A stretch of DNA of 64,000 nt from Candidatus Woykebacteria bacterium (GTDB lineage: Bacteria > Patescibacteriota > Microgenomatia > Woykebacterales > RBG-16-39-9b): assembly GCA_040876265.1 (NCBI GenBank), contig JBBDPN010000002.1:100818-164817 (forward strand). The letters are read 5' to 3'. Under the pieces are notes generated by a model. That model saw nothing but the letters and a program-made list of their open reading frames with translations. It was not told the origin of the DNA and ran no database searches. Below are positions 6,575 to 45,020 of this stretch, piece after piece (within the stretch, counting starts at the first letter, position 1; the number at the start of each line of letters is the position of its first letter). Position numbers and translations under genes: made by a program.

Positions 6575-7225
6575 TTATTGATTTGCACTGCTAGTGGCTT
6601 CCTTTTCCGCGGCTGCTTTAGCGGTCCTGACAGCAACAATAAGATCTACAACTGATTTCCGATGCGCCTTTAAAGCGGCCAAAACTCCCTTCATATCGTC
6701 CCGAAACAAAGCTAAAACTCCTTTGGGAGTATCGCCGCTACAATCAAACTCAGCAATTGCTGCTTTTGCATCCGCCAAAGCTGTATCAACGGCGGCACTT
6801 TTTGCAGCAATATCAGCTACCAGTGCATCGTAACCTTCCACCGTTACTCCAGCAGGTACTAGCTTGTCCGTATAATAATTTTCGACTCTACCGGCGATAT
6901 TATCAAAACGGTTAGTCATATTTTGAGCTCTGGTAGTGAGGCGGTTCGATCTCCCTGTAATCCGAGATTCAACTCTCTCACAAAGTTTCTCTTTTCTGGC
7001 TTCCAATTTCTCCTCAAATTTTTCCCTAAGTTTCTCGACTCTATCGTGGATCTTATGCCTTATTTCGTCTCTTTTTGTAGCCGAGGAGGTCGCTTCGTCT
7101 TCTTCGTGAAGTACTCTAGATCTTTCAAAGATAAACCTGGCGGAGACGTTTGTTGCGAACACAAAGGAAAAAATCAAAAAGGAACTAAGAAATACCGTAA
7201 GAAATTTAGCAAGACCGCTTTTCAT
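6575..7225 (-). CDS. secreted coiled-coil protein (signal peptide plus helical repeats)
   Basis: N-terminal signal peptide MKSGLAKFLTVFLSSFLIFSFVFA, long charged helical region, Ala-rich C-terminus. Confidence 0.5.
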   Translation of the reverse strand: MKSGLAKFLTVFLSSFLIFSFVFATNVSARFIFERSRVLHEEDEATSSATKRDEIRHKIHDRVEKLREKFEEKLEARKEKLCERVESRITGRSNRLTTRAQNMTNRFDNIAGRVENYYTDKLVPAGVTVEGYDALVADIAAKSAAVDTALADAKAAIAEFDCSGDTPKGVLALFRDDMKGVLAALKAHRKSVVDLIVAVRTAKAAAEKEATSSANQ

Positions 7226-7322
7226 GGATTACTTAAACTATATCAACCTAGCTGGAAACCTGTCAAGAAACCTATCGTTTATTTCCTTGACGCTGGCAAC
7301 TTAACCGCTTAAAATCGCTCCT

Positions 7323-8306
7323 ATGGCCCGTTTTTTCTTCTCTCTCGAGCACGAACAATTTCAACCCGAAAAAATAGTTGGTCTGGCAAAATTGGTAGAA
7401 GAGGCTGGATTTGATGGCATCGCTGTTTCTGAACATTTCCACCCTTGGGTGGATGATATTGGCGCTGGTGGCTTTGCTTTTTCGACTCTTGGCGCAATAG
7501 CGGCTGTTACCAAGAAAGTCCGGCTAATGACTAATGTTGTCTCGCCCCTTTTCCGTTACCACCCGGCCATTGTCGCTCAAGCGGCTGCTACTATTGATAG
7601 GCTCTCTAGTGGTCGTTTCGAGCTTGGTGTTGGGACTGGTTGGAGCTTGAACGAAAGCCCGCTTGGCTACAAATTCCCCAATTATAAAGAGCGGGCTGAA
7701 AGAATGAGAGAAGCCTTAGAAATCATGCGTCGCCTGCTGGATGGAGAAAAGCTTACTTACACTGGTAAATATTACAAGACTGATCGAGCTAAACTTTATT
7801 CGCCGCCAAACAGAAAAATCCCAATTTATATGGCTGCGGCTGGACCAAAATCGGCGGCTCTTGCCGGCCAAAAAACAGATGGTGTCATCGTTAGTGTCAA
7901 AAACCCGGCTGAAAGCCTACAGAAAGTAATTGAGCCAGCAAAAAAAGCGGCTACCAGTGCCGGAAGGACCAATCCGAAAATTATTGCTTCTCGATGGACT
8001 ATCATTGCCAGGGATTATGACGAGGCCTGGAAAGCGATACAGCCTTGGCGGGGTTTGAGAGTTCCTGGAAGAGACAAAGCAGTTGATCCGCAAGACCTTC
8101 GTATGGAAGCAGACATGCTCGGTCCAAAAGAACTATTAAAAAATTTTACACTTGTACAGGACCAAAAGGAACTAACAGAAGTTTACTCTACTCTTATCGA
8201 AGAGCTCGGCGCAGATACTGTGGTAACCAGTATCGCTTCAACCAATCCGGAAAGTATAATTAAGATGGTCGCGAAACAAGTCTTGCCCACTCTTAAAAAA
8301 TTATGA
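7323..8306 (+). CDS. LLM-class F420-dependent oxidoreductase, F420-dependent glucose-6-phosphate dehydrogenase (FGD) family
   Basis: closely follows FGD signature: ...SEHFHPW...(V)SPLFRYHPAIVAQAAATIDRLSSGRFELGVGTGWSLNE (cf. FGD TPTFRYNPAVIAQAFATM...FLGVGTGEALNE). Confidence 0.7.
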   Translation: MARFFFSLEHEQFQPEKIVGLAKLVEEAGFDGIAVSEHFHPWVDDIGAGGFAFSTLGAIAAVTKKVRLMTNVVSPLFRYHPAIVAQAAATIDRLSSGRFELGVGTGWSLNESPLGYKFPNYKERAERMREALEIMRRLLDGEKLTYTGKYYKTDRAKLYSPPNRKIPIYMAAAGPKSAALAGQKTDGVIVSVKNPAESLQKVIEPAKKAATSAGRTNPKIIASRWTIIARDYDEAWKAIQPWRGLRVPGRDKAVDPQDLRMEADMLGPKELLKNFTLVQDQKELTEVYSTLIEELGADTVVTSIASTNPESIIKMVAKQVLPTLKKL

Positions 8307-9160
8307 AAGTAGGAATTGTAATAGCCGGTTACGATTGGCCAAATATCGGTCCAACGCTAGAAAAAATCGCTAAAACCAGCGAAGAGGTTGGCTTTGATAG
8401 CGTTTGGGTGGTGGATCATTTCTTTGGCATGGGCGACGCCACCGAACCCATGCTTGAATCTTACACAAATCTTGGCTTCATCGCTGCAGTAACAAAAAAG
8501 GTAACAATAGGTGCGATGGTAGCCGGAGTGATTTACCGTTACCCCGCTCTTTTGGTGAAGGCCGCCACAACTCTTGACGTAATTTCCGGTGGCCGCGCGT
8601 ATTTTGGCATAGGGGCAGCTTGGTACGAACGGGAGGCGGTAGGCCTTGGTTTTCCATTTCCGCCGGTAAAGGAACGGTTTGAACGTCTGGAAGAGACACT
8701 GCAGATCGCGAAGCAAATGTGGTCCGGTGAAACTAAAGCATTCAGAGGTAAACACTATCAACTGGAGGAAACAATTAATTCACCCCAGCCTATATCTAAG
8801 CCTCATCCACCCATAATTATCGGTGGTGGTGGCGAGAAAAAAACATTGCGCCTGGTGGCAAAATATGGCGATGCTTGTAATTTATTTGTGAAAGGTGGTT
8901 TAAACCAAGTAGCTCACAAACTCGATGTGTTAAAAGATCATTGCCAGGATGTCGGCAGGAATTACGAAGAAATTGAAAAAACCGCTTACGCTGGCAGGGA
9001 CGTTACTTCCAATCTAGCACCTTCCCGGTTGGTAGACATGTGTAAATCCCTGGCAAAAATGGGAATAGTGCACACAATATTTGCAATAACAGATATTGAT
9101 AAAATCGCACCATTAGAAACCTTCGGAAAAGAAATTATTCCTGCTGTGAAAGAGTTTTAA
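8303..9160 (+). CDS. LLM-class F420-dependent oxidoreductase (luciferase-like monooxygenase family)
   Basis: VVDHFFGMGDA...YRYPALLVKAATTLDVISGGRAYFGIGAAW...IGGGGEKKTLRLVAKYGDACN pattern of TIGR03560-type LLM proteins; start overlaps previous gene stop (ATGA). Confidence 0.65.
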   Translation: MKVGIVIAGYDWPNIGPTLEKIAKTSEEVGFDSVWVVDHFFGMGDATEPMLESYTNLGFIAAVTKKVTIGAMVAGVIYRYPALLVKAATTLDVISGGRAYFGIGAAWYEREAVGLGFPFPPVKERFERLEETLQIAKQMWSGETKAFRGKHYQLEETINSPQPISKPHPPIIIGGGGEKKTLRLVAKYGDACNLFVKGGLNQVAHKLDVLKDHCQDVGRNYEEIEKTAYAGRDVTSNLAPSRLVDMCKSLAKMGIVHTIFAITDIDKIAPLETFGKEIIPAVKEF

Positions 9161-9505
9161 ATGGAATTACTCCTACTTCTTCTCACGACAACCGGATACA
9201 AATCTGGAAAGAAACATACGGTACCGCTCGGTTTTTTAAAAGACGGTACGAATTATATTGTAACCGCTTCTAATGCTGGCCGGGACCAAAATCCAGACTG
9301 GTTTTTAAATTTGAGAAGAAATCCAGAAGTTACGATCCGACTACAAGGTGTTGAGAGGAAAGTAAACGCAGAAGTCGTCAATCCAAAAGAACGAGAGCGT
9401 CTTTGGAAGAAACTAATGATCGAGGCTCCTTCTTATCAACGTTATGAGAAACAGACAAAACGCACTATTCCAATGGTAATATTACGCCCAATTAGCGAAA
9501 AATAA
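9161..9505 (+). CDS. deazaflavin (F420H2)-dependent nitroreductase family protein (Ddn/DUF385, PNPOx-like)
   Basis: LLLTTTGYKSGKKHTVPL...NPDWFLNLRRNPEVTI...ERERLWKKL...YQRYEKQTKRTIPMVIL matches the DUF385/Ddn family consensus. Confidence 0.7.
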   Translation: MELLLLLLTTTGYKSGKKHTVPLGFLKDGTNYIVTASNAGRDQNPDWFLNLRRNPEVTIRLQGVERKVNAEVVNPKERERLWKKLMIEAPSYQRYEKQTKRTIPMVILRPISEK

Positions 9506-9541
9506 CCTGATCTCTCTCCTCTATAGTCAGTATCCGTTTTC

Positions 9542-9724
9542 TTACATACCAGTCTGGCCGCCACTACTCTTATCACCGTTGTCTCCGCTTTCACCGCCTT
9601 CCTGGCCTTGTTCGCTGCCTTCGCCTTGGCCTTCGCCACCATTACCTTCCTTTTCCTCGCCATTATCATCTGATCCACCCGTTGCTGGGTTGTTTACATC
9701 TGGCATATCGTCCACAAACATCAC
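9542..9724 (-). CDS. small intrinsically disordered acidic Gly/Glu/Gln-rich protein (60 aa)
   Basis: strong RBS AAAGGAGGTG directly upstream of ATG; no hydrophobic core, no Cys. Confidence 0.4.
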   Translation of the reverse strand: MMFVDDMPDVNNPATGGSDDNGEEKEGNGGEGQGEGSEQGQEGGESGDNGDKSSGGQTGM

Positions 9725-9826
9725 CTCCTTTATAACTAGTTTATTATCTCAAAAAAGTGGGCAATTGCAACTATAACAATGGTTGTTAAATAACCCAAAT
9801 CACGTAGATGATATACTGGATCTTCC

Positions 9827-10375
9827 ATGAAAGATCTAGAAACAGCAACCCTGGCAGGAGGGTGCTTTTGGTGCACAGAAGCTGTCTTTAAAAGGTTAAG
9901 AGGGGTGATAAGGGTTCTCCCAGGGTATGCAGGAGGCGATGTAAAAAATCCCTCTTATGAGCAGGTTTCAGCAGGAACAACCGGTCACGCCGAAGCTGCC
10001 CAAATAAAATTTGACCCACAGGTGATTTCTTACGAGCAACTTCTCGAGGTATTTTTCAAACTTCACGATCCCACGCAAATGAATCGCCAAGGCAATGACG
10101 TGGGTAAGCAGTACCGATCGGCCATTTTTTATCACAACGAAAATCAAAAAAAGGCAGTTGAAGCAAAAATAAAAGCGTTGGAAATGAACCCAGATCTAAA
10201 AGGTAAAATAGTTACCCAAATAGAGCCTTTCCAATCTTTCTACGAAGCAGAAGATTATCACAAAGATTACTACGATAAAAATAAAACCGCTGGTTATTGC
10301 CAGGTGATAATCGATCCAAAAATCCACAAGCTTTACAAAGAATTTTCTGATCTAACGAAGGAAGGAGGTGACTAG
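9827..10375 (+). CDS. msrA: peptide-methionine (S)-S-oxide reductase MsrA
   Basis: GGCFWCTEAVF active-site motif and full-length MsrA similarity. Confidence 0.9.
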   Translation: MKDLETATLAGGCFWCTEAVFKRLRGVIRVLPGYAGGDVKNPSYEQVSAGTTGHAEAAQIKFDPQVISYEQLLEVFFKLHDPTQMNRQGNDVGKQYRSAIFYHNENQKKAVEAKIKALEMNPDLKGKIVTQIEPFQSFYEAEDYHKDYYDKNKTAGYCQVIIDPKIHKLYKEFSDLTKEGGD

Positions 10376-10377
10376 AT

Positions 10378-10578
10378 ATGAAATACACCATGCATTGTCC
10401 TGTAGAAACCTGCGAGCACGTCATGGAAGCTGATGCAGAAAACGATGACGAAGCTGTAGGAAAGCTCATCGCGGCTGGAGACGCTCATTTTGCAGAAGTT
10501 GGGCACCCAATGGATCAATCTATGACTCCTGAAATGAAAGATAAAATGACCAGCGAGCACATGCAAAAGGAAGGCTAA
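10378..10578 (+). CDS. DUF1059-like small metal-binding protein
   Basis: 66 aa, MKYTMHCP..C.H......D.A...H.....H pattern; RBS AGGAAGGAGGTG upstream; translationally coupled to msrA. Confidence 0.45.
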   Translation: MKYTMHCPVETCEHVMEADAENDDEAVGKLIAAGDAHFAEVGHPMDQSMTPEMKDKMTSEHMQKEG

Positions 10579-11204
10579 GATGTTCTTGCTGAAGCTTCAT
10601 TGAAGAGCGAGCCGCCTTTTATATACGCGTAAGCAAACGAGGCTAGTTCCAACACGAGAAAAACTCCTGCAAGGATACTCCAAATACTTATTCGCTGCAA
10701 AGCTGTGTGAAAAAGAATTAATAGTAAAGCCACGTAAACCAACCGGTGCAGGGGTTTCCACCACTTCCCCAGCCGCCGGACGCTGAAATTATTCGATGTA
10801 GCAAACATGAAAAACAAAATCATCAGTGCCGAAGAACCAAATATCTGAAAAAGTGGAATCATGATAGGTTCGATCCCCGCCAATTTGGGCAAAGTAACTA
10901 AATGGTAATGGGTGAAGGCGAGTAGAAAGACCAGTATTCCCAGTCTCCTTCGGTAAAGTGTAATGATTCGACTTATCTTAAATTCAATTCCAAGTCTTCC
11001 GATTATTCCGGGAGTAATCACAACCAAAAGTACAGAAAGCGCGGCTCTGCCAAACCACGCTCTCTTTACAGCAAAAAAATTGTAAATTTCCTGATCATTG
11101 TAAATTGAATACGCAGTAACAAGAACGACGCCAACTAACACTAGATACAATGCGTTGGTGAAGAGATGGACGACAGAACTGTTTCTCGCAAAAGCCTCAA
11201 ACAA
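10575..11204 (-). CDS. ferric-reductase-like transmembrane heme-binding protein (MsrQ/YedZ-like)
   Basis: 6 TM helices, RRLGKWWKPLHRLVY motif and conserved His pairs characteristic of MsrQ/FRD TM domain. Confidence 0.55.
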   Translation of the reverse strand: MFEAFARNSSVVHLFTNALYLVLVGVVLVTAYSIYNDQEIYNFFAVKRAWFGRAALSVLLVVITPGIIGRLGIEFKISRIITLYRRRLGILVFLLAFTHYHLVTLPKLAGIEPIMIPLFQIFGSSALMILFFMFATSNNFSVRRLGKWWKPLHRLVYVALLLILFHTALQRISIWSILAGVFLVLELASFAYAYIKGGSLFNEASARTS

Positions 11205-11384
11205 GCTATCTTGCCAAACTTACGGTTTATTTGGTGTGGAAGTACTCATCAGGAGAAATTATATCAAACTAGTTCGAAAACTTAGTTAAAAAAGTTCTGC
11301 CAACCGATCAAGGGCTTTTTACCAATACTCCTGCATTTTTTCGTACGTAAGTCAAAATTTACAACTTCTTGTATACTTTTAAAC

Positions 11385-11837
11385 ATGCAAAGTAATGCGA
11401 AGACAGTAGAGGAATACATTTCTTCCCTTACAGCTGAACGGGCTGAAGCAATAAAAAAAGTGCGCGAAGTTATTCTAAAAAATCTACCTCCTGGCTATGA
11501 AGAAAATATGAATTGGGGAATGATCAGCTACGAAATCCCTCTATCGAAATTTTCTGACACTTATAACAAACAGCCTTTAGGTATCGTTGCTCTTGCCTCG
11601 CAAAAACAGCATATGTCAGTGTATCTCATGAGTATATACGCGGATCCAAAGATGGAGAAGTGGTTTACGGATGAATATAAAAAATCTGGAAAAAGGATGG
11701 ATATAGGTAAATCTTGTGTGAGATTTCGCAAACTGGAAAACCTCCCGCTTGATCTTATTGGCAAAGCGATAGCAAAATCTCCTTCTCCTGATGATTACAT
11801 CTCATTCTACAAAAAAAGCAGGGGGTTACGTAAGTGA
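11385..11837 (+). CDS. DUF1801 (YdhG-like) domain protein
   Basis: VEEYISSL..E.AEAIKKVREVI....P...E...WGMISY pattern of DUF1801. Confidence 0.55.
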   Translation: MQSNAKTVEEYISSLTAERAEAIKKVREVILKNLPPGYEENMNWGMISYEIPLSKFSDTYNKQPLGIVALASQKQHMSVYLMSIYADPKMEKWFTDEYKKSGKRMDIGKSCVRFRKLENLPLDLIGKAIAKSPSPDDYISFYKKSRGLRK

Positions 11838-12826
11838 CCACCTTTATATTTTTTCTCCTTGGTCTTGCTATTCTTATCAAAGGTGCTGACTATCTTGTAG
11901 ACGGAGCCTCCTCTGTATCTTTAAAACTAAAGATAAGTCCTTTGGTAATTGGTCTCACCGTAGTCGCTTTTGGTACCTCTGCTCCAGAACTTGTGGTTTC
12001 GGTACTCAGCGCCCTGCGTGGTAGCACACAACTAGCCTTGGGTAACGCCGTAGGATCCAACATCTTCAATATCCTGGTAGTTTTGGGTTTGGCAGCGATA
12101 GTTTATCCCCTGACTGTCCAAAAAAGTACTGTTTGGAAAGAAATTCCAATGTCTTTCCTAGCGGCCGTGGTGCTTACTGTTCTAGGAGTGCAAGTCTTAC
12201 TAGACGAAAAGGCTTTTTCTCCTCTTTTGAAGGCTCTCAATTCTCCAGAAATAATCGGTGGTATTACCCTCAGTAATGGTCTGATACTTCTATTCTTTTT
12301 CATAATTTTTCTTTACTACACGTTTGGGATGGCCAAAGAAAATGCGGATGAAGAAAGCACTATAAAGGAGGCGAGCATCCCTAAATCTGTTTTTTGGATA
12401 TTCTTGGGGCTAATCGGTTTGGCACTTGGGAGCGGTTTGGCGGTGGAAAATGCCGTAACTATTGCTAAAAATCTGGGAGTTAGTGAGAGCTTGATTGGTC
12501 TTACCCTACTGGCGGTTGGTACCAGTTTGCCCGAACTTTTTACCAGTATATCAGCAGCTTTGAAGAAAAACACTGATATTGCAGTGGGCAATGTCGTGGG
12601 TTCCAATATTTTTAATATTATGCTGGTACTGGGGATCACTTCCCTTATTCACCCTATCCCCTTGAGCGGGCAAAATCTAGTGGATATCCTAGTGCTTTTT
12701 GGGGCTACGCTGCTGTTATTTGCGGCTCTTTTTGTAATCGGGAAACACAAAATTACCCGAGTGGAGGGTGCCTTGATGTTTACCTCTTACCTAGCATATC
12801 TAGGTTTTCTCATTTATAGAGGTTGA
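11834..12826 (+). CDS. Ca2+/Na+ antiporter, CaCA family (YrbG-like)
   Basis: two alpha-repeats GNAVGSNIFNILVVLG / GNVVGSNIFNIMLVLG, 10 TM helices. Confidence 0.85.
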   Translation: MTTFIFFLLGLAILIKGADYLVDGASSVSLKLKISPLVIGLTVVAFGTSAPELVVSVLSALRGSTQLALGNAVGSNIFNILVVLGLAAIVYPLTVQKSTVWKEIPMSFLAAVVLTVLGVQVLLDEKAFSPLLKALNSPEIIGGITLSNGLILLFFFIIFLYYTFGMAKENADEESTIKEASIPKSVFWIFLGLIGLALGSGLAVENAVTIAKNLGVSESLIGLTLLAVGTSLPELFTSISAALKKNTDIAVGNVVGSNIFNIMLVLGITSLIHPIPLSGQNLVDILVLFGATLLLFAALFVIGKHKITRVEGALMFTSYLAYLGFLIYRG

Positions 12827-12844
12827 CTACAAATCGTTAAAAAT

Positions 12845-13084
12845 TTATTTCCTTGCTGCTGGAGGTTTCTTGCGGTTGCTAAAATACTGACGACGGGCTT
12901 CTTTGGCAGCAAGCTGTTCTTCAACCTTTTTTTGGCAATCTTTATCTGGGCAAACGAAAAGAGTTATCTTCACCACTGAAGAGTTTAGAACCATAGTCTT
13001 TTCGCTTGCTTTTACACGCTCTTTACCACACCGAATACACAGGGTTGCCTTCATAGGTATATTTCTCGGTGGGCAGGTAACCAA
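12845..13084 (-). CDS. small zinc-ribbon protein (C-x2-C ... C-x4-C), hypothetical
   Basis: four Cys in two pairs, basic C-terminus; probable start at internal MKATLCIRCGK. Confidence 0.35.
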   Translation of the reverse strand: MVTCPPRNIPMKATLCIRCGKERVKASEKTMVLNSSVVKITLFVCPDKDCQKKVEEQLAAKEARRQYFSNRKKPPAARK

Positions 13085-13095
13085 GAACCTTTAGT

Positions 13096-13431
13096 TTAGT
13101 ATCTACGACCGCCGCCTCGACGATCTGGACCACGCTGGTTAAAACCGCCTGGTCGCTCTTCCCTAGGTCGGGCTTCATTTACAACGATGGTGCGTCCAGA
13201 AAGCTCTTTACCATTTAATTGCTCTACTGCTTTCTGAGCGTCTTCATCGCTTGCCATCTCAACAAAGCCAAAACCCTTTGAATTGCCGCTGAATTTATCT
13301 GTTATTAAATTTACAGACTCCACAGCCCCGACAGAAGAAAATAGCTCTTCCAGTTGGTCCTGGGTAACTTCATAAGCTAGGGAACCGACAAATAGTCGCT
13401 TAGCCATATTTTCCTTTCTAGCAAGATTCAC
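13096..13431 (-). CDS. RNA-binding protein with RRM domain and Gly/Arg-rich tail
   Basis: RNP-2 LFVGSL and RNP-1 KGFGFVEM motifs; C-terminal RGG/RR repeat. Confidence 0.9.
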   Translation of the reverse strand: MNLARKENMAKRLFVGSLAYEVTQDQLEELFSSVGAVESVNLITDKFSGNSKGFGFVEMASDEDAQKAVEQLNGKELSGRTIVVNEARPREERPGGFNQRGPDRRGGGRRY

Positions 13432-13555: not shown

Positions 13556-13741
13556 TTAACCTTGCCCGTCACCAACGTCCTGGCCTTCTTGATTTTCTCC
13601 ATTTTGACCTACCTCTACGTGATTTTCTCCTGGTACAGATGGGGCGTCAGGATGGGTTTCTTTGTGGTGACCATCTACTTCTTCGGGACTTTTGAAAACT
13701 TTGGTACCACAGGTTTTACAGGCTAAAGACCTATCCAGCAT
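13556..13741 (-). CDS. small protein with C2H2-like zinc-finger spacing and acidic Gly/Gln/Glu-rich tail
   Basis: CKTC-x13-HH-x3-H; AGGAGGTG RBS 5 nt upstream of ATG (MLDRSLAC...); tail NGENQEGQDVGDGQG. Confidence 0.4.
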   Translation of the reverse strand: MLDRSLACKTCGTKVFKSPEEVDGHHKETHPDAPSVPGENHVEVGQNGENQEGQDVGDGQG

Positions 13742-13835
13742 ATACTTCACCTCCTGTTTTAATTATAGCCTAAATATTAAAATGGCTTTGAAGCGTAGAG
13801 GAAGATAGGCTCTCTTACTTGGTTTGCTATTGTTT

Positions 13836-14033
13836 TCAGGCAAGCTTTACGTTTTTTGCACTTGGGCCTTTGTCGCCATCCACAACATCAAACTCAACGG
13901 CGGCTCCTTCTTGAAGCTCGTCAAAAGTAACGCCATTTAAATCGTTTGAGTGGAAGAAAAGATCTTTTTCTTCACCTTCACGAGAAATAAATCCGTAGCC
14001 TTTATCTGTTTTTGTTTTGACTGTTCCGTTCAT
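13836..14033 (-). CDS. csp: cold-shock protein (CspA family)
   Basis: KGYGFI ... FFH RNA-binding motifs; start at MNGTVKTK with GGAGGTACC RBS (ORF-track TTG start upstream is unlikely). Confidence 0.85.
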   Translation of the reverse strand: MNGTVKTKTDKGYGFISREGEEKDLFFHSNDLNGVTFDELQEGAAVEFDVVDGDKGPSAKNVKLA

Positions 14034-14111
14034 ATGGTACCTCCTTTCGTTCCTTATTATAAAGTATCCAGGGGTAATTACCAAATTTTAAGGGAACGCA
14101 GCTAATATTCG

Positions 14112-14186
14112 TGGCTCCCCGGGCAGGATTCGAACCTGCAACCTTGAAGTTAACAGCTTCCTGCTCTACCATTGAGCTACCGGGGA
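14112..14186 (-). tRNA. tRNA-Asn (anticodon GTT), CCA encoded
   Basis: cloverleaf TCCCCGG-TA-GCTC-AATGGTA-GAGC-A-GGAAG-CTGTTAA-CTTCA-AGGTT-GCAGG-TTCGAAT-CCTGC-CCGGGGA-G-CCA. Confidence 0.85.
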
Positions 14187-14419
14187 ATAATGGACTTCAA
14201 AAATTCTTTACCTATTCCGCTTTTTAGATATTTCTCTCTTTTCCTTGCTTGCAAACGAGTTGCTGTTTCCTCTTTATACAAAATTTTCCACGGTCTGTAA
14301 CCTTTTGTTGAAAATACTCTTCCCAAATTATGTTCTCTTATTCTTCTGCCCAAATTCGTGGTGAAACCAACGTAAATCCTTCCGTCTTTTTCACTTATTA
14401 AACCATAAACTGTAACCAT
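14177..14419 (-). CDS. GIY-YIG nuclease family protein (YhbQ/UPF0213-like, 80 aa)
   Basis: VYGLISEKDGRIYVGFTTNLGRRIREHN matches GIY...YIG...R..EH core; stop codon TAG lies inside the tRNA-Asn acceptor stem. Confidence 0.7.
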   Translation of the reverse strand: MVTVYGLISEKDGRIYVGFTTNLGRRIREHNLGRVFSTKGYRPWKILYKEETATRLQARKREKYLKSGIGKEFLKSIIPR

Positions 14420-14496: not shown

Positions 14497-14609
14497 ACGC
14501 GAATTGCTATTTTAGCATTTTACACCAACCTATTCAAGCCTTAGCCATTTTAACTGTTTACTTTTTCCTCTATCTTTGCTAAAGTGGGCCCCAGCAAAGG
14601 AAGGGCTTT

Positions 14610-15131
14610 ATGAACAAAGTATTCGGAAAGCTGATCGACTTTATTTCCCCACCTACTCTTGTTTACGCTCATTGCGATATTCCTTGCGGAATTTATGACC
14701 CGCACAACGCCCAAATGGCTGCTCACACCGTAATCCGTATGACGACTCTTATCAACGAGCTTCCAGAGCCAAAACCGGATTGGAAAAAGAAAGAGGCTGA
14801 CAGCTGGGCCCACAAACTTTCCAGATACACATCTGTCAAAGAAGAGCACGCCGAACTAGTGAACCGGGAGATAAGAATTTTGTGGGCTGACTACTTTAAA
14901 CCCGAGCATCTGAATAAACATCCAAAACTGCACGAAATAGTCTGGAATATCCTGAAAACCGCATCAAAAGCTAGACAAGAGGTGGATATCCAAGTGGCCG
15001 ATAAACTACTAGACGAGGTTAACACTCTAGCAGAAATTTTTTGGCAGACAAAAAATATGGGGCACACAAAATTCAGAGCGCCTTACCCTACCGAAAGAGA
15101 AACAGTGTACCCAACTTCGAAGAAAAATTGA
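14610..15131 (+). CDS. sodN: nickel superoxide dismutase precursor (SodN) with N-terminal propeptide
   Basis: HCDIPCGIYDP nickel-hook motif located after a ~19-aa leader (processing site after ...LVYA). Confidence 0.85.
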   Translation: MNKVFGKLIDFISPPTLVYAHCDIPCGIYDPHNAQMAAHTVIRMTTLINELPEPKPDWKKKEADSWAHKLSRYTSVKEEHAELVNREIRILWADYFKPEHLNKHPKLHEIVWNILKTASKARQEVDIQVADKLLDEVNTLAEIFWQTKNMGHTKFRAPYPTERETVYPTSKKN

Positions 15132-15134
15132 TTT

Positions 15135-15428
15135 ATGCTACCTATCAGAAGCTTTATCGTCAAAGGTCACAGTATGCAGCCGAGCCTCTCTGAAGGCGAT
15201 CACATTTTGGTAAACAAGTGGGCTTATTTGTTTTCCAGACCAAAAGTTGGAGATGTCGTAGTCTTCAAAAGTATAAACGAGGGTAAGTATATTCTAAAAC
15301 GGATCCAAAAAATTGCTACCCAGGGATTAATTGTCAGGGGCGATAACAAAGTAGACAGCGCTGATAGTAGTTTCTTTGGAATTATTAAGCCAGAACAAGT
15401 ACTGGGTAGGTTTTTAACCAAATATTAA
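15135..15428 (+). CDS. sodX: Ni-SOD maturation protease (SodX, S26 signal-peptidase-like)
   Basis: VKGHSMQPSLSEGD catalytic Ser motif of S26 family; immediately downstream of sodN. Confidence 0.8.
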   Translation: MLPIRSFIVKGHSMQPSLSEGDHILVNKWAYLFSRPKVGDVVVFKSINEGKYILKRIQKIATQGLIVRGDNKVDSADSSFFGIIKPEQVLGRFLTKY

Positions 15429-15429
15429 A

Positions 15430-15690
15430 ATGAAGTTAAAGATTAGTAGAGTACGGCTCTTTGAATTTTTTATTGTCGGTTTGCTGCTTGGTGTGATCGA
15501 AGATCTACTTGCTATTTGGCTGGCTACTGATTCAATGATCGATTTACGAGTAATATTAATTGCCGCCTTGGTAGCTCTTCCCTTTGCGTTTGTGAGTGAG
15601 ATAGTTGTTGATCTCCGTCACTTACCAGCGGGCTTGAAGAGATTTCTAAAAATGGAAGAAGAGAGTATTTTCAAGAGACTAAAATTTTAG
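15430..15690 (+). CDS. small membrane protein, hypothetical
   Basis: two predicted TM helices; coupled to sodX (2-nt spacing). Confidence 0.4.
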   Translation: MKLKISRVRLFEFFIVGLLLGVIEDLLAIWLATDSMIDLRVILIAALVALPFAFVSEIVVDLRHLPAGLKRFLKMEEESIFKRLKF

Positions 15691-15729
15691 CCCGCCTTCG
15701 CTAAAGCTTCGGCGGATTTGCGCTGCGTT

Positions 15730-15933
15730 TCAACAAAATTCGCAGGTCAGGGCCTTACCTTCTTTTTTCTTCTGCTCTACTCTTGGCCCCGCGTCGCAGC
15801 AAGCATCACAACAAAAATGTCCGTCTTCTTTTCGAACGCCTTCACCGGGTGCAAGTTTTTTGCCACAGTTTGGGCAAGTCTTTCCGTCAGCTAACGGATT
15901 TTCTTTTGTGTCGGTTCCGCCAAAAAAACCCAT
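15730..15933 (-). CDS. small Cys-rich protein (9 Cys in 67 aa; CPNC, CCDACC, CEFC), possible metal-binding/metallothionein-like
   Basis: Cys spacing; divergently placed next to cation P-type ATPase. Confidence 0.4.
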   Translation of the reverse strand: MGFFGGTDTKENPLADGKTCPNCGKKLAPGEGVRKEDGHFCCDACCDAGPRVEQKKKEGKALTCEFC

Positions 15934-35235: not shown

Positions 35236-36003
35236 ATGAAAAAAATCTCTCTACCGAGCGTAACTTTCCTAATCTTATCATTGATTGGCCTTATCTTTCT
35301 TCATCAGAAGGTGGCGGCCCAAGAAGTTTTCGTCGGATCGCTTATTAATGATAATAAAACGCTATCCAGCATATCATTTACAGGTCTGAAGCCTGGTCAC
35401 TACTACATAGTTGAGCTGACTGGAAGATGGGGTGAAAGAGACTATTTGGAAGGAACAGACGATAAGCAACTCCACCTGGCCAGTAGTAGTGGAGTAGTCA
35501 AGATAGGGTCGATATGTGAAAACGGAGAAGGTGACAGGGACAACTGCGGCGAGGAGTTCCATTCAGGTGATTACAATATGAGAGTACTTGAGTTTAATGG
35601 CACTCCAACTAGCCTTCGAATTGATGATCAGTGGGATCAGATAGGAGCTGTAGTAACCGCTTATTCCTTTAATGTGGACGAGGATGGCAACGTTGGCGAC
35701 GTTGTTGAGTCGCCAGGTGGTGCTGTAATTGGTGATCCAGACTTAACTCGCGATCCAAATCCAAACGCCAGAGAGGCCGCAAATACATTTCTTGGCTTTG
35801 GCCTTGGGACGGCGGGTGGGATAGCATTCCTGCTGATGGTGTTTGGAGCGTATCGGTTGATATTTGCCGCTGGAAATCCAGAGAGCATTCAGCAGGGTAG
35901 AGAAGTGATCACCGCTGCTATTGCCGGCCTGCTGGTTATTGTCTTTGCGGTGTTTATCCTGCGCTTCCTTGGCTACACTATTCTGAACATTGGAGGTCTC
36001 TGA
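35236..36003 (+). CDS. exported protein with C-terminal VirB2/TrbC-like pilin module
   Basis: signal peptide; C-terminal TM-GNPESIQQGREVITAAIAGLLVIVFA-TM motif shared with the four downstream paralogs. Confidence 0.55.
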   Translation: MKKISLPSVTFLILSLIGLIFLHQKVAAQEVFVGSLINDNKTLSSISFTGLKPGHYYIVELTGRWGERDYLEGTDDKQLHLASSSGVVKIGSICENGEGDRDNCGEEFHSGDYNMRVLEFNGTPTSLRIDDQWDQIGAVVTAYSFNVDEDGNVGDVVESPGGAVIGDPDLTRDPNPNAREAANTFLGFGLGTAGGIAFLLMVFGAYRLIFAAGNPESIQQGREVITAAIAGLLVIVFAVFILRFLGYTILNIGGL

Positions 36004-36609
36004 ATGGACGACTGGTTTGGAGTTAGTGGTGGTGCGAATTTTTCAAACATAGGTGAGGCTATTTCTTTACTTCTACTGCCTATCTTCACTTTGGCGGGGA
36101 TGATCGCCCTTCTTTTTGTTATGTGGGGAGGGCTACGCTATATGCTTTCCCGTGGCGATCCAAAGGCTGCCGAGGCGGCCCGCGGTACTTTGACCAGCGC
36201 GATAATTGGGCTTCTGATAGTGCTTTTTTCAGCGGCTATTTTTGTTATTTTTGCAGACATCCTAAGGATTGATATTTTCGTCGGTGCTGTACCGACAGCG
36301 CAAGCAGCTGTATCTATCGGTGACACGGTACGGTTGGGTGGTGGCCTTCGAATAGGGTTCTTTCAGAACATCGGCCAAGTGTTTTCCGGATTTGTCTTGT
36401 TAGCACTGGCGGCCGCAGCCCTGATTTTTCTGGGGATGATGATCTGGGGTGGTATTCGCTACCTAAATGCTGGTGGCAACCCGGAAAATGCTGAATCTGC
36501 CCGTAGCACCCTCACCAGCGCCGGAATCGGTCTATTGATTATTGTAGCTGCTTTCCTGATAATAGAACTAGCAACTAACGTGATCGGGCTAGCCAGCATC
36601 TTTAATTAA
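36004..36609 (+). CDS. tandem-duplicated VirB2/TrbC-like pilin protein (two pilin modules)
   Basis: two copies of TM-G(D/N)P(K/E)..(A/S)AR.TLTSA.IGLLI-TM. Confidence 0.55.
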   Translation: MDDWFGVSGGANFSNIGEAISLLLLPIFTLAGMIALLFVMWGGLRYMLSRGDPKAAEAARGTLTSAIIGLLIVLFSAAIFVIFADILRIDIFVGAVPTAQAAVSIGDTVRLGGGLRIGFFQNIGQVFSGFVLLALAAAALIFLGMMIWGGIRYLNAGGNPENAESARSTLTSAGIGLLIIVAAFLIIELATNVIGLASIFN

Positions 36610-36611
36610 TT

Positions 36612-36920
36612 ATGGGGCCTTCTGTAGGAAAAATAGCCTTACCATCACTGGCTTTTCTAAACATCGGCGGTATCGTGGGTAATTTACTTACCATTGCTTT
36701 TTTTGCCGCTGCTTTATTTTTTCTTATCCAAGTTGCTATCGGTGGTATATCGTGGATAAACGCCGGCGGTGATCCCAAAACCCTTGAAGCAGCTCGTGGC
36801 CGGATTACGAACGCCGTAATTGGCATTGTAATTGTTGCCGCCGCTTTTGCAATCACTATCATCGTCACCACAGCTCTGGGAATAAATATTTTTAAAGCCG
36901 GTGGCATCACTATACCTTAA
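36612..36920 (+). CDS. VirB2/TrbC-like pilin paralog
   Basis: GGDPKTLEAARGRITNAVIGIVIVAAAF motif between two TM helices. Confidence 0.55.
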   Translation: MGPSVGKIALPSLAFLNIGGIVGNLLTIAFFAAALFFLIQVAIGGISWINAGGDPKTLEAARGRITNAVIGIVIVAAAFAITIIVTTALGINIFKAGGITIP

Positions 36921-36992
36921 AGAACCGCTTGCATTGCTTGTTTACTTTTGTATAAAATAATAGGAGGAGGTGAGTTTTAAAAGAAAGACGTT

Positions 36993-37376
36993 ATGAAAAA
37001 AATATTAACTGCCGCTACTTCGCTAGGATTTTTACTTTCATCGGCTGCACCAGCACTTGCAGCTGAGTTTACATTTGTAGGGGACGTGCCGTTTAGAAAT
37101 CTTGGGGAGCTGCTTGGAAATCTGTTAATCCTTATCTTCGCCGGTGCCGCTATTTTGGCCTTTATCTTTATTGTCATCGGGGGCTTGCAGTGGATAACCG
37201 CTGGGGGTGACAAAATGGCTGCTCAGTCCGCTCGAGATAGGATTACCGCTGCGGTCGTCGGTCTAGTAATTATCGTCGCCGCGTTTGCGTTGACTCTGAT
37301 CATCACCACTGTACTTGGTGTAAACATATTCGAAGGGACCATTGTCTTCCCAGAGCCAGAAACACCGGTATTCTAG
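36993..37376 (+). CDS. VirB2/TrbC-like pilin paralog with signal peptide
   Basis: signal peptide AAPALA; GGDKMAAQSARDRITAAVVGLVIIVAAF. Confidence 0.55.
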   Translation: MKKILTAATSLGFLLSSAAPALAAEFTFVGDVPFRNLGELLGNLLILIFAGAAILAFIFIVIGGLQWITAGGDKMAAQSARDRITAAVVGLVIIVAAFALTLIITTVLGVNIFEGTIVFPEPETPVF

Positions 37377-37401
37377 AACCAAATTGACGCCGATTTCTTG
37401 A

Positions 37402-37776
37402 TTGGTTAAAATCTATTTAATGAGGATAAAGGTTTTATGTATCGTTTTTTCCTTTTTACTTTTTCCTTTTTACTTTACCAACGCTTCCTCTGTTTTCGCC
37501 CAAGAGCCAGCTACTCTTCAGGACCTTGAAACCGTCTTCCGAAGTGTAATCACTTGGGTTGCCGTAATAGGTGGCTTTCTAGCCTTTATCGCCATAATAA
37601 TCGGGGGATTTAAATATATTGTGGCTCGGGGTGATCCAAAGGCAGTTTCTAGCGCTCAAAATACCATTACCTGGGCGGTGATTGGCCTAGTACTGATCAT
37701 TGTAGCCTGGCTCGTACTAGTGGCTATTTCTCAATTCACCGAACAGAACGTCAGGGTATTCGATATTCCATTTTAG
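37402..37776 (+). CDS. VirB2/TrbC-like pilin paralog with signal peptide
   Basis: signal peptide SVFA; RGDPKAVSSAQNTITWAVIGLVLIIVAW. Confidence 0.55.
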   Translation: MVKIYLMRIKVLCIVFSFLLFPFYFTNASSVFAQEPATLQDLETVFRSVITWVAVIGGFLAFIAIIIGGFKYIVARGDPKAVSSAQNTITWAVIGLVLIIVAWLVLVAISQFTEQNVRVFDIPF

Positions 37777-42140: not shown

Positions 42141-45020
42141 TTACGCGGTGAGTAGCTGGTTCTTGCTGGTGAAGAACACAGCCCTAATCGCTCGTATCTT
42201 TTCCCTCCTTTCGTACTCAGGTAGAGCGGCGTAGAGACCCATGAGGTCGGTCTCGAGCTGCGGCCAATCCTCCGGCCCCATGTTGATGATGCGCGTAGCC
42301 AACTCGCTGCCAGGCTGTGGATCCGTCCCGAATCCTGCGTAGGCGTGGATCCACTCCGCTATCTGAGCTATGTTGGTCAGCAGAACCATTTTTCCTTGGG
42401 TGCGGCCTTCCTGAGTCAGGTTCTTGCTGGTCGCCCAGTGCCATCCAACCCTACGACTGAGCAACACATTCCTCGCCCACTGCATGTCATCCTCACCGTT
42501 CCAGGGCTGATCTTCCTGGACCTCGGCCTTGCCATGTAGAGCGTCGTAGACCGGGTTCAGATAAGACATGAAGCCCAAAGCCATGTACTGGCTCTGACCC
42601 CAGGCATCGTCTCCCGTACGACCCGCGATACCGTGAGCCGCCCATTTGCCAAAGATGCTGCCAGTGAAGGCGCGGCTGTTGTAGATGTAGAACATTTCAG
42701 CCGCTCGGTCCCTCATCCACAAGGTTGCCCGACGTCGGTGGAGGTTGGTCACGTACTCGTTGTCGGGACGCCCGTGACGGATGTCGGGCATGCCGTGGCT
42801 CTCCTTTGCCACAACACTAATGGTGTCGTGGATCCGGTTGAGCTCGGCTTCGCTGTGCTCCTCCTCGACACGCTGTGCAAATGGTTGGCTGGGTTGGTTG
42901 CGCCAGAGCTCGTACAGGAAACCCTTGTAGTAGTTGCCCACCTCCTCCATCGGCCTCCAGAATACGTAGCCCATGGTGAGGAAGTCGCCCTGTCCGTTGG
43001 CTATGGCCTGGTTGTAGGTCTCCTCGCTCATGTGACAGTAGGCACGGATGGCCTCGTCTCCCACGACCCGACGATAGATCTCCAAGACCCGAGGTCCGTC
43101 GGGGGTTTTCATGTTGATGCCCCCTTGGGTGGGGTCGAGGATCAACCGGTGGATAAGCCTTTCCGGAAGCCTGGGTGCCCCGTCGGATTCGTATCCCCAG
43201 AGCGAGTCCATGGGATCGAAGCCGAAGTACTCCCAAAGGGCCGCTAGTTGATGGAAGTCTGTCGGCAAGGGTGCCCCCGCCACCAGCTTCGTGAACTCGT
43301 CGAAGTCCATGTTGGACCAGGCGAGCTTGGTGATGAAGCCCCTGTCCGGATCGGTTGATCCGTGCCAGAATCCGTAGTAGGGGAGGTAGAACTCTGCGTC
43401 ACCGAGACCTCGTTCTGCCAAACCCCCGATGTGGGACAGGTACCAGTCGCTCACCGCCTTCGCTAGGTCGCCGAGGCGCAGCATACCTATGTTTTGCTCC
43501 CTCTTTTGACCACTCCGCTGTTTCTTGTGGGACTGCGCCTTGCCGTCCATGACATGGCTTTCCGCGGATCTCTCCAGAGCCAGGTCTGAAGCAGAGTGTG
43601 ATGGACCGATGTTCCACCATTCACAATACTCCAGCTCCAAATTCTGGGTCGGATCATCAGAAGGTCTGCGGGACAAGACACTAAAGAATCGTTTCCACAG
43701 GGATCTCTGGACCCGACTGGGTTCTTGCTTCACTCGGCGCCTGGAGGGGAGGATTGCCTCAGCCATCCGCTCGGAGTCCGAGACGATGCCGTGGGCGACG
43801 TCCCGTACTGGGTAGTAGATGCCGTAGACGTCACGGTAGTGGTTTGGGTGGGGATCGAAGTTGAGCCGACCGTAGCCCTGGTTGAGCTCAAAGAGCTCCT
43901 GTACCTGAGCTTTTGTCCGTATCAACGGACCGTACATTGCTTCACGAGCTTCTTCGATCTTCGCCAACTTCTCGTCGTCGTAAAGCGGCTCCTCCTCACC
44001 GGTCAGTGGATTTCTGACAAGTGGGTTTGGAGTTTCGATCAGCTTCGGTTGGTAGTAGTTTCCGTCCGCTTCGTAGATCGGCATCCCATCTGAATCTAGC
44101 TCCATGAGACGAGTCGGGTTGGCTACTGTACCGTGTCGTCGGTTGGCGTGGTAGTCCACCTGGACGTTGTTGGGATCGTAGTTTCGAGGATCCTCCGCAG
44201 CCCCGCTTTGGATCAGCACTTCTGCGTAGTTGAAGGTGATCAACTGCTCGGTAGGGTTATATGGCACCCAATCTGTGAACTTCTCGCTCAGCCACTTTCC
44301 TGGGGGGTTACCGGCGGCTCTCCACAGGAACTCCTTGATGCGAAGCTCCATGATCTGCTCCAACGGAACGCCCTTGAGTTCTGGGTTCATGGCCCAGTAA
44401 AGCTCCACCACTTTGGGCTCCCAAGGAGTGGTGATGAGCGAAAAGTCGTAGTCATCCCTGGGCACGAAGAAGGGAACCCAACGACGGATTTCAACACGCT
44501 CCTCGTGACATTTGAGATCGTGCATAAGTCCGCCGAACCTTGCTAAGAGGGTCCACCACCGACTCTTCGAGAGTTTCTGGAGCTCCTTTGGCTGGAGTAT
44601 ATTCACCGGCTCCAGGGACTTGTTTCCCTCATCATCCACCACAATGCGGTGGACAACGGAGATCACCGAGTCAACCAGCAAGATTGGCTTGTGAAAGTAC
44701 TCGGTGAGAGTTCTAGGAAAACGGTCCTCTGGCATCGGTAGTACACCAGGGCTTGGCATGACATTCGCGTAGCGGTGTAGTTCCTGCCTGGGTAACTCCT
44801 GCTTCCTGGACTCGTTCGCCACAGCCAAGTTGAGCTGGGGAACAGTTACGGCCGCACTGCGGTCTCCAGGTCGACCCATAACCTGAGAGACCATACCCGC
44901 CCTTAGGTAAGTGGCCAGAGGCGTGCGCCCACCTACTGATGTCGACGGAGCAGCAAAAGCCTCTTCACGCTGTTGCCTCAACCTCTCCAATCGCTGTTCG
45001 CGAGTTTCCTCCTGAGCCAT
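42141..45020 (-). CDS. large orphan protein (959 aa), GC-rich gene (~59% GC), W/Y/F-rich, no signal peptide
   Basis: long uninterrupted ORF with strong GC3 bias unlike neighbours; many shadow ORFs on both strands; no Walker or HUH motifs recognised. Confidence 0.6.
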   Translation of the reverse strand: MAQEETREQRLERLRQQREEAFAAPSTSVGGRTPLATYLRAGMVSQVMGRPGDRSAAVTVPQLNLAVANESRKQELPRQELHRYANVMPSPGVLPMPEDRFPRTLTEYFHKPILLVDSVISVVHRIVVDDEGNKSLEPVNILQPKELQKLSKSRWWTLLARFGGLMHDLKCHEERVEIRRWVPFFVPRDDYDFSLITTPWEPKVVELYWAMNPELKGVPLEQIMELRIKEFLWRAAGNPPGKWLSEKFTDWVPYNPTEQLITFNYAEVLIQSGAAEDPRNYDPNNVQVDYHANRRHGTVANPTRLMELDSDGMPIYEADGNYYQPKLIETPNPLVRNPLTGEEEPLYDDEKLAKIEEAREAMYGPLIRTKAQVQELFELNQGYGRLNFDPHPNHYRDVYGIYYPVRDVAHGIVSDSERMAEAILPSRRRVKQEPSRVQRSLWKRFFSVLSRRPSDDPTQNLELEYCEWWNIGPSHSASDLALERSAESHVMDGKAQSHKKQRSGQKREQNIGMLRLGDLAKAVSDWYLSHIGGLAERGLGDAEFYLPYYGFWHGSTDPDRGFITKLAWSNMDFDEFTKLVAGAPLPTDFHQLAALWEYFGFDPMDSLWGYESDGAPRLPERLIHRLILDPTQGGINMKTPDGPRVLEIYRRVVGDEAIRAYCHMSEETYNQAIANGQGDFLTMGYVFWRPMEEVGNYYKGFLYELWRNQPSQPFAQRVEEEHSEAELNRIHDTISVVAKESHGMPDIRHGRPDNEYVTNLHRRRATLWMRDRAAEMFYIYNSRAFTGSIFGKWAAHGIAGRTGDDAWGQSQYMALGFMSYLNPVYDALHGKAEVQEDQPWNGEDDMQWARNVLLSRRVGWHWATSKNLTQEGRTQGKMVLLTNIAQIAEWIHAYAGFGTDPQPGSELATRIINMGPEDWPQLETDLMGLYAALPEYERREKIRAIRAVFFTSKNQLLTA

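Follow-up and report, generated by a model that had tools for sequence, protein, structure and literature searches.

The use of coenzyme F420 is generally ascribed to methanogens, Actinobacteria, Chloroflexi and a small number of further phyla. Bacteria of the Candidate Phyla Radiation (CPR), or Patescibacteria, are believed to obtain the majority of their cofactors from other cells; their genomes generally lack cofactor biosynthesis, and usually riboflavin synthesis as well. The subject of this report is a three-gene locus of F420-family enzymes in a 64-kb stretch of chromosomal DNA from Candidatus Woykebacteria (assembly GCA_040876265.1, contig JBBDPN010000002.1, positions 100,818 to 164,817 of the forward strand; hereafter "the window", to which all positions refer unless another locus is named). 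An earlier reading of the window, made from the sequence alone and called here the sequence-only reading, had called F420 metabolism unexpected in a reduced-genome lineage, and the source is indeed such a lineage, one of the CPR that NCBI names Candidatus Woykebacteria. A 2021 review of where F420 occurs names Actinobacteria, Chloroflexi, Alpha- and Betaproteobacteria, Tectomicrobia, Acidobacteria, Firmicutes, Nitrospinae, Rokubacteria and Dadabacteria, and CPR/Patescibacteria are absent from this list (PMC8498797). A full-text literature search found no papers discussing F420 enzymes in CPR bacteria, which is limited evidence of absence.

The described systems to which the locus can be compared are the glucose-6-phosphate dehydrogenase FGD, a luciferase-like monooxygenase (LLM) family protein, and Ddn, a split-barrel reductase of the FDOR-A group. 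In FGD, the F420 ring is hydrogen-bonded to Asp39, Val74, Glu109, and Asn112, and the ribityl chain contacts Gly106 and Gly108 (PMC13434993). Glu13 and His40 form the catalytic dyad of FGD1, Trp44 contacts the substrate, and Glu109 serves as the acid that gives a proton to N1 of F420 (PMC12384609). The phosphate pocket made of Lys198, Lys259, and Arg283 is strictly conserved in FGD-active proteins (PMC5352752). The characterized enzymes of this dehydrogenase clade bind F420 at 0.09-2.2 µM, while their dissociation constant (KD) for flavin mononucleotide (FMN) is >150 µM (PMC6279831). In Ddn, Arg54 forms a hydrogen bond with the glutamate at the end of the F420 tail, and helix A and its loop are needed for substrate binding (PMC3267046). 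For the FDOR-A/Ddn group as a whole, an exclusive dependence on F420 has been reported (PMC8518648).

The window locus consists of three consecutive open reading frames (ORFs), labeled P1, P2, and P3:

7323-8306 (+): P1, 327 aa; LLM oxidoreductase of TIGR03557 ("F420_G6P_family"), in the dehydrogenase-type clade and not an FGD
8303-9160 (+): P2, 285 aa; LLM oxidoreductase of TIGR03560 (Rv1855c-type)
9161-9505 (+): P3, 114 aa; core of an FDOR-A/Ddn-family split-barrel reductase

Together they are a three-gene, translationally coupled operon on the Woykebacteria chromosome. P1 and P2 share a 4-nt ATGA overlap, with the ATG at 8303-8305 and the TGA at 8304-8306. The P2 stop codon TAA (9158-9160) abuts the ATG of P3, and these two genes are in the same reading frame. 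The ORF check matches exactly the boundaries and the coupling given earlier (the 8303-8306 overlap and the abutment at 9160/9161). A purely hypothetical readthrough of the P2 stop (9158-9163) would fuse the LLM to the FDOR-A core.

Profile searches used Pfam and NCBIfam models with curated cut-offs. P1 matches Bac_luciferase (PF00296, 208 bits) and passes TIGR03557 narrowly (224.8 against a cut-off of 210.4), P2 matches Bac_luciferase (137 bits) and TIGR03560 (288.1 against 231.4), and P3 matches F420H2_quin_red (PF04075, 107.9 bits against 22) and TIGR00026 (96.8 against 46.35). The family assignments are well beyond chance, and the sequence-only reading was right to call all three proteins F420-family, since each passes the curated cut-off of a family whose characterized members use F420. 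For TIGR03560, the F420 assignment is that of the NCBIfam/TIGRFAM curation. The assignments themselves are not new, as the NCBI pipeline already names these proteins by the same families. P1 stays below the cut-offs of the FGD equivalog TIGR03554 (182.2 against 420), of the fHMAD equivalog (191.5 against 470), and of the FMN "flavin_revert" model TIGR03885 (202.1 against 398.7).

P1 shares with FGD the LLM TIM-barrel, the TIGR03557 subfamily, and most of the cofactor site. P1 was aligned to Rh-FGD1 and Mtb-FGD1, with residue roles taken from the literature and conservation counted over 120 homologues. Nine of the ten FGD1 cofactor-contact or catalytic positions are retained. The Glu13/His40/Trp44 set is present as Glu11, His38, and Trp42, while Val72, Gly104, Gly106, and Asn110 stand for Val74, Gly106, Gly108, and Asn112, and Glu37 replaces Asp39, as it does in the whole clade. 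All contact positions other than 107 are invariant or nearly so across the homologues. The non-prolyl pair Asn71-Val72 aligns with the LLM cis-peptide bulge of strand beta-3, a match in sequence position only. The change concerns the proton donor:

7641-7643 (+): codon TGG of P1 Trp107, at the position of FGD1 Glu109

This position is a glutamate in 119 of the 120 homologues, the window protein being the sole exception. In the alignment, the ring and ribityl hydrogen-bonding set is retained at five of six positions (Glu37, Val72, Asn110, Gly104, and Gly106), with Glu109 gone. The sister genes carry GAA at codon 107, which makes three nucleotide changes. Tryptophan is also the invariant residue at the same position in the P2 family, where the motif reads GIGAAW. 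An origin of Trp107 by gene conversion from P2 was rejected, as P1 and P2 have only 40% nucleotide identity around the motif. So was general decay of P1, which is just as close to the outgroup as its sisters are (identity 0.59) and whose remaining private changes are conservative.

The substrate site differs more deeply from that of FGD. The glucose-6-phosphate pocket is missing in P1, with Asn194, Asp251, and Asn274 in place of Lys198, Lys259, and Arg283; Lys193 and Lys273 adjoin these positions, so that some positive charge stays nearby. The P1 clade has an invariant basic lid motif of its own, PWRGLRxPGR. Because Lys193 is near-invariant in this clade and Arg243, Arg246, and Arg250 are, like the lid motif, invariant, there is a hint that the clade's substrate is probably anionic. 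The "near-textbook FGD signature" that had been read into P1 was thus overstated, given the Glu109-to-Trp107 replacement and the missing phosphate pocket; by its TIGR03554 score, too, P1 is not an FGD. The alignment to FGD1 that had been proposed as a check gives a divided answer, with nearly all contact and catalytic positions kept and the proton donor replaced. By sequence, the best solved relatives of P1 are Adf (PDB 1RHC, 174 bits), fHMAD/FGD2 (PDB 9FP4, 167 bits), and a "luciferase family protein" (PDB 9HAV, 166 bits). Like P1, Adf and fHMAD have no glucose-6-phosphate pocket; unlike P1, all three proteins retain the glutamate, and the P1 clade is about equidistant from them.

P2 looks intact from its sequence. 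It is a clear member of the TIGR03560/Rv1855c-type LLMs, it shares 57-64% identity with homologues from Chloroflexi and from several groups of archaea, and it deviates mildly at six of the 102 columns that are conserved at ≥95%. Its GIGAAW motif is identical to that of the family, and the tryptophan is invariant in all 23 aligned family sequences.

P3 retains the core of Ddn (Rv3547; PDB 3R5R and 3R5W). It aligns without gaps to Ddn residues 46-151 at 41% identity, the same span as in the N-terminally truncated Ddn crystal constructs, and its PF04075 match covers profile positions 25-129 of 130. Its first residue corresponds to Ddn residue 42, and it is without the roughly 40-residue N-terminus that contains helix A and the preceding loop. 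Only four residues precede the LLLTT strand, where 115 of 119 homologues have 22 or more (typically 30-33). This truncation is real, because the in-frame codon just upstream is the P2 stop. Within the core, most F420-contact and catalytic-site residues are shared. The Ddn positions Pro63, Ser78, Trp88, Asn91, Tyr133, Tyr136, Arg142, and Ile144 are all kept (contacts per PMC3267046). In P3 numbering, the contact equivalents Ser15 (for Thr56), Pro22, Trp47, Asn50, and Tyr92 are kept, while His19 replaces Arg60 and Asn38 replaces Lys79; asparagine is normal at this last position in the P3 subclade (119 of 120 members). The Ddn residue Tyr130 is an alanine in P3. A further change affects the tail-binding arginine:

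9197-9199 (+): codon TAC of P3 Tyr13, at the position of Ddn Arg54

This position is an arginine in 117 of 120 homologues, and tyrosine is unique to P3. It is the only deviation of P3 in 26 columns conserved at ≥95% among 120 sequences, and P3 retains all 21 invariant columns of a 20-sequence alignment. The description of P3 as "Ddn-like" is therefore correct for the family, whose cut-offs are passed, and must be restricted to the fold core, since the N-terminal segment is missing; likewise the alignment to Ddn, also proposed in advance, finds most F420 contacts kept and Arg54 replaced by Tyr13.

The closest relatives of P3 are 57% identical at best, and none is labeled as CPR. Neither tblastn nor blastn found a remnant of P3 in the two sister loci described below (L002 and L004). 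Because it has no close relative and is absent from these loci, P3 is a lineage-specific addition, and it may well be a separate, later acquisition. The idea that P3 belongs to a natural class of short FDOR-A proteins was rejected, because in P0123, the one apparently short homologue examined, the reading frame continues upstream into a complete N-terminus. This 113-aa protein (L007, 9863-10342) has a mis-called start, and some "short" FDOR-A entries in public databases are thus annotation artifacts.

The P1-P2 pair is a recurrent module common to several CPR lineages, and not a one-off oddity of this genome. Two other Woykebacteria-type contigs (L002 and L004) have the pair with the same 4-nt overlap and in the same neighborhood, which includes FemAB, MsrA, a nickel superoxide dismutase (Ni-SOD), and a P-type ATPase. 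An alignment-based scan of species-representative genomes gave further relatives in a Levyibacteriota metagenome-assembled genome (MAG; L010), in two Saccharimonadia MAGs (L016 and L017), and on a complete CPR chromosome (L020), as well as in Dehalococcoidia and Acidimicrobiia. In L016, L017, and L020, the next gene after the P1-type one is of P2 type. No P1-P2 pairing was found outside CPR in one actinobacterial, one archaeal, six Dehalococcoidia, and one Acidimicrobiia locus. The pair as a general module beyond CPR was consequently rejected, as the two families are unlinked in all the non-CPR loci examined, and only CPR loci were seen to pair a TIGR03560 gene with one of TIGR03557. In L016, the pair divergently adjoins (6585-9947) genes for a PNPOx-fold protein, a 6-phosphogluconolactonase, a 6-phosphogluconate dehydrogenase, and an NADP-type glucose-6-phosphate dehydrogenase.

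Neighbor-joining trees of P1 and P2 are congruent. In both, the CPR sequences are basal and fall into matching sub-groups of Saccharimonadia, Levyibacteriota, and Woykebacteria type. The placement check thus puts the CPR sequences at the base of the Actinobacteria and Chloroflexi sequences and not inside them. Bootstrap support for the Woykebacteria-type clade is 98 of 100 in the P1 tree and only 10 of 40 in the P2 tree, and monophyly of all CPR sequences is unsupported (21/100 for P1, 0/40 for P2). These trees fit a long co-inheritance of the pair within CPR rather than a recent transfer.

The Levyibacteriota locus L010 (PLZJ01000003.1) links the same families to F420 synthesis. All three are found there within 6 kb, the P1-type gene coming first, and they are interspersed with cofE-cofD-cofC, the genes that turn Fo into F420 (scores are given against the cut-offs):

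10001-10984: P1-type LLM, which keeps the glutamate (TIGR03557, 227.4 against 210.4)
10981-11739: CofE (264.7 against 180.65)
11743-12666: CofD (344.3 against 257.45)
12663-13256: CofC (141.2 against 105)
13600-14244: 214-aa protein without a family match
14514-14927 (-): full-length FDOR-A, 137 aa (90.4 against 46.35)
14981-15883: P2-type LLM (280 against 231.4)

The three cof genes pass equivalog-level cut-offs and are translationally coupled to the P1-type LLM. A radical-SAM Fo synthase was not found within 10 kb on either side of the cluster. The GC content of L010 is uniformly low (0.30-0.42), and because of this L010 is not a chimera with high-GC DNA. On another low-GC metagenome contig (L026), cofE-cofD-cofC are followed by a P2-type gene, which all of 40 bootstraps place together with the L010 copy. 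The L010 cluster resembles the window locus in having the same three families in a CPR genome. It differs in its cofE-cofD-cofC genes, in its retained glutamate, in its full-length FDOR-A, and in its gene order, and also in a cytochrome bd oxidase (7671-9941) just upstream.

In the light of these comparisons, the window locus can be read as an F420-type redox module that would run on an imported deazaflavin and that has been remodeled or weakened in this lineage, a reading that we consider about evenly balanced between right and wrong. It is favored because of the family memberships, the cofactor contacts that are mostly kept, the F420 selectivity reported for the families (PMC8518648, PMC6279831), and the link to cofE-cofD-cofC in L010. 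As P1 belongs to the dehydrogenase clade with FGD, FSD, Adf, and fHMAD, the P1-type enzyme would take a hydride from an alcohol or a sugar-type, probably anionic, substrate and pass it onto F420. The P2-type LLM and the FDOR-A protein would then spend F420H2 on reductions, for example in the detoxification of quinones or xenobiotics, and such a role would fit the neighboring oxidative-stress genes MsrA, Ni-SOD, and Suf. The deazaflavin would most likely be imported from neighbor or host cells, as F420 or as Fo, because no Fo synthase or cof genes lie near the locus and because CPR genomes generally lack cofactor biosynthesis. The scavenging of F420 that had been suggested earlier gains from L010, where cofE, cofD, and cofC occur with no Fo synthase within 10 kb; the import step itself is one that we infer. 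In the window lineage, the module would have been remodeled by the replacement of the proton-donating glutamate of P1 with tryptophan, and by the reduction of P3 to its core without the tail-binding arginine. Since two cofactor-contact residues and the N-terminus of P3 are lost, the module has probably changed its way of working, or lost some of its efficiency, compared with that of its relatives. It might use a tail-less deazaflavin as its cofactor, or P1 might no longer be the F420-reducing step.

Several observations weigh against this reading. In about 77 kb (the window plus 2.7 kb to its left and 10 kb to its right, probably less than 10% of the genome), none of cofC, cofD, cofE, cofG, and cofH was found; for the window, where the earlier statement that F420 biosynthesis genes are missing holds, the search combined Pfam scans of 56 ORFs with tblastn using CPR CofC, CofD, and CofE. 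P1 is without the glutamate that protonates N1 of F420, and P3 without the tail-binding arginine and the N-terminal segment; in line with this last loss, N-terminally truncated Ddn binds F420 yet is inactive on the substrate tested (PMC3267046). The TIGR03557 pass is narrow across the entire P1 clade, with scores of 216-220 for the CPR sisters and 233-236 for the actinobacterial relatives against the cut-off of 210.4. The literature yielded no biochemically characterized member of the P1 clade or of TIGR03560. For 9HAV, one of the closest solved relatives of P1, the best-scoring model is the FMN model TIGR03885 (348.8), and by this NCBIfam score its cofactor may differ from F420. Elsewhere in CPR, the L016 P1-type gene (9938-10978) is an intact ORF that reads GVGTGRSEGMLGY, in which an arginine and a 2-residue deletion replace the catalytic glutamate loop. 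In L020 (10001-11734; OY969420.1, a complete CPR chromosome of 779,761 bp), the P1-type and P2-type genes are each broken into short ORFs and are pseudogenes. Finally, the substrates and the reaction directions of the module are, like the import step, our own deductions.

Some of these observations would be explained by a switch of cofactor, with P1 to P3 now using FMN or another common flavin in a cell unable to make F420, as has been proposed for the TIGR03885 branch of the same LLM subfamily. We consider such a switch unlikely, though worth keeping in mind. A protein that does not bind F420 would need neither the ring/N1 contact removed by E107W in P1 nor the polyglutamate-tail contact removed by R13Y in P3. 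Together with the lack of nearby cof genes and the best model of 9HAV, the closeness of the P1 scores on TIGR03885 (202) and TIGR03557 (224.8) points the same way. However, P1 remains far below the TIGR03885 cut-off, its remaining ring and ribityl contact positions are all kept, and the same families cluster with cofE-cofD-cofC in L010. The exclusive F420 dependence reported for FDOR-A and the very poor FMN binding of characterized dehydrogenase-clade enzymes also speak against a switch (PMC8518648, PMC6279831). Seen from the side of supply, FMN would have to be imported as well, given the usual lack of riboflavin synthesis in CPR. Alternatively, the locus could be a relic in early decay, whose lineage would have lost its access to F420 and whose genes, though still ORFs, would be drifting toward loss. 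The catalytic glutamate of P1 has gone through a three-nucleotide change, P3 is truncated and is absent, without any remnant, from the sister loci, the Saccharimonadia copy in L016 has also lost its glutamate, and both genes are fragmented in L020. Moreover, loss of the glutamate is enriched in CPR P1-type copies (two of eight intact copies against none of 122 others; Fisher p = 0.003). Against decay, the three ORFs are intact with their coupled junctions kept, P1 has diverged from the outgroup no more than its sisters have and its other unique changes are conservative, P2 appears fully intact, and P3 deviates at a single conserved column. A path from GAA to TGG via GGG also resembles the outcome of selection for a different residue more than that of random decay. 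On balance we rate a relic as improbable, at the same level as the FMN switch. The changes in the window lineage, taken by themselves as sequence, fit a mechanistic shift, and they also fit the FMN switch or the beginnings of a decay that has run to its end in L020.

The pairing of the genes suggests yet another possibility, in which P1 and P2 would form a LuxAB-like heterodimer with P2 as the catalytic subunit, and P1 would be turning into a non-catalytic partner in some CPR lineages. The adjacency with a 4-nt overlap is found only in CPR, while the families are unlinked in the non-CPR loci examined; the two trees are congruent; and the loss of catalytic residues is confined to P1-type copies, GIGAAW being invariant in P2. 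Nevertheless, the characterized relatives FGD1, Adf, and Mer are homo-oligomers, the L010 genes are 4 kb apart with cof genes between them, and most CPR P1 copies retain the full catalytic set. A heterodimer thus appears quite improbable, more so than either a switch of cofactor or a relic. The least probable explanation by far is that the genes entered the assembly through contamination or wrong binning, or the genome through very recent transfer out of Actinobacteria or Chloroflexi, in which case the locus would say nothing about CPR biology. The families are indeed most abundant in these two groups, and the named non-CPR matches come from them. But the locus lies on a 302-kb contig, in a window of uniform GC that carries dnaA, dnaN, sigma-70, tmRNA, and CPR-type pilin arrays, and the same pair occurs in the same neighborhood in independent assemblies. 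In addition, identity to the nearest non-CPR relatives reaches only about 60%, and the CPR sequences branch at the base of the non-CPR clade and not within it. For P1 and P2, contamination or recent transfer is already largely refuted.

If the F420-type reading is extended from the window to the other CPR loci, a wider and more tentative picture can be proposed, one that we hold to be possible and still rather doubtful. There would be a CPR-specific deazaflavin system, built around the co-inherited LLM pair and fed by Fo or F420 from F420-producing neighbors or hosts. Some of these bacteria, such as the one behind the Levyibacteriota MAG, would rebuild F420 from Fo through CofC, CofD, and CofE. 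Others, such as the present Woykebacteria lineage, would have remodeled the system for a different or tail-less deazaflavin, or would have turned P1 into a non-catalytic partner of P2.

The surroundings of the operon are those of a CPR chromosome. The window includes dnaA-dnaN-rnpA-yidC, sigma-70, dnaG, SmpB and tmRNA, seven tRNAs, and an array of pilins of the type IV secretion system (T4SS) type. Its GC content is even except for one GC-rich 2-kb stretch about 33 kb from the locus. The best promoter-like sites of the region sit in the 97-bp gap 5' of P1:

7287-7315 (+): promoter-like site TTGACG-17-TAAAAT, 10/12 matches, ending 8 nt 5' of the P1 ATG

This site may be the promoter of the operon, whose leader would then be very short; it is a suggestion and nothing firmer, and in the promoter and terminator scan for operon boundaries the counts of sites in the region are no higher than in shuffled controls. 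Directly 3' of the operon (9827-11204) come MsrA (9827-10375), a 66-aa ORF (10378-10578), and a membrane protein resembling ferric reductase and cytochrome b561 (10575-11204, -). This set is also kept in L002. A nickel superoxide dismutase (PF09055) is encoded at 14610-15131 (+), and the small ORF just downstream is an S26-type maturation peptidase; the two genes are also paired in the sister locus L004. With the SufBC genes that lie upstream of the window, the MsrA/ferric-reductase set looks like an oxidative-stress neighborhood.

Farther from the operon, the replication-origin region (dnaN, dnaA, rnpA, yidC, and jag) occupies 53845-58472, and the cumulative GC skew is lowest near 54-56 kb. 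Five tandem T4SS-type pilin genes (PF18895), a PrgI-family gene, and a VirB4/TraG-like ATPase (35236-37776, 47283-48089, and 50950-52776) look, from their gene content, like a type IV secretion or pilus cluster. At 42141-45020 (-), the GC content spikes at 0.574 against about 0.44, within a 959-aa ORF without a Pfam match. A 655-aa ORF at 48090-50057 (+) has a strong AT skew (+0.31) at 48-50 kb.

What is new here is the CPR-specific pairing of two LLM families, its link in one CPR lineage to the genes that tailor Fo into F420, the natural replacement of glutamate by tryptophan in P1, and the core-only Ddn homologue P3. The natural tryptophan at the proton-donor position and the core-only P3 are ready-made experiments on mechanism and cofactor specificity, and both families are relevant to biocatalysis and to the activation of anti-tuberculosis prodrugs. 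If the proposed reading is true, an F420-type module with Fo-to-F420 tailoring and no linked Fo synthase would give a concrete example of cofactor piracy that can be tested. The module would then also hint at the identity of the hosts or neighbors of these bacteria, as these would have to produce F420.

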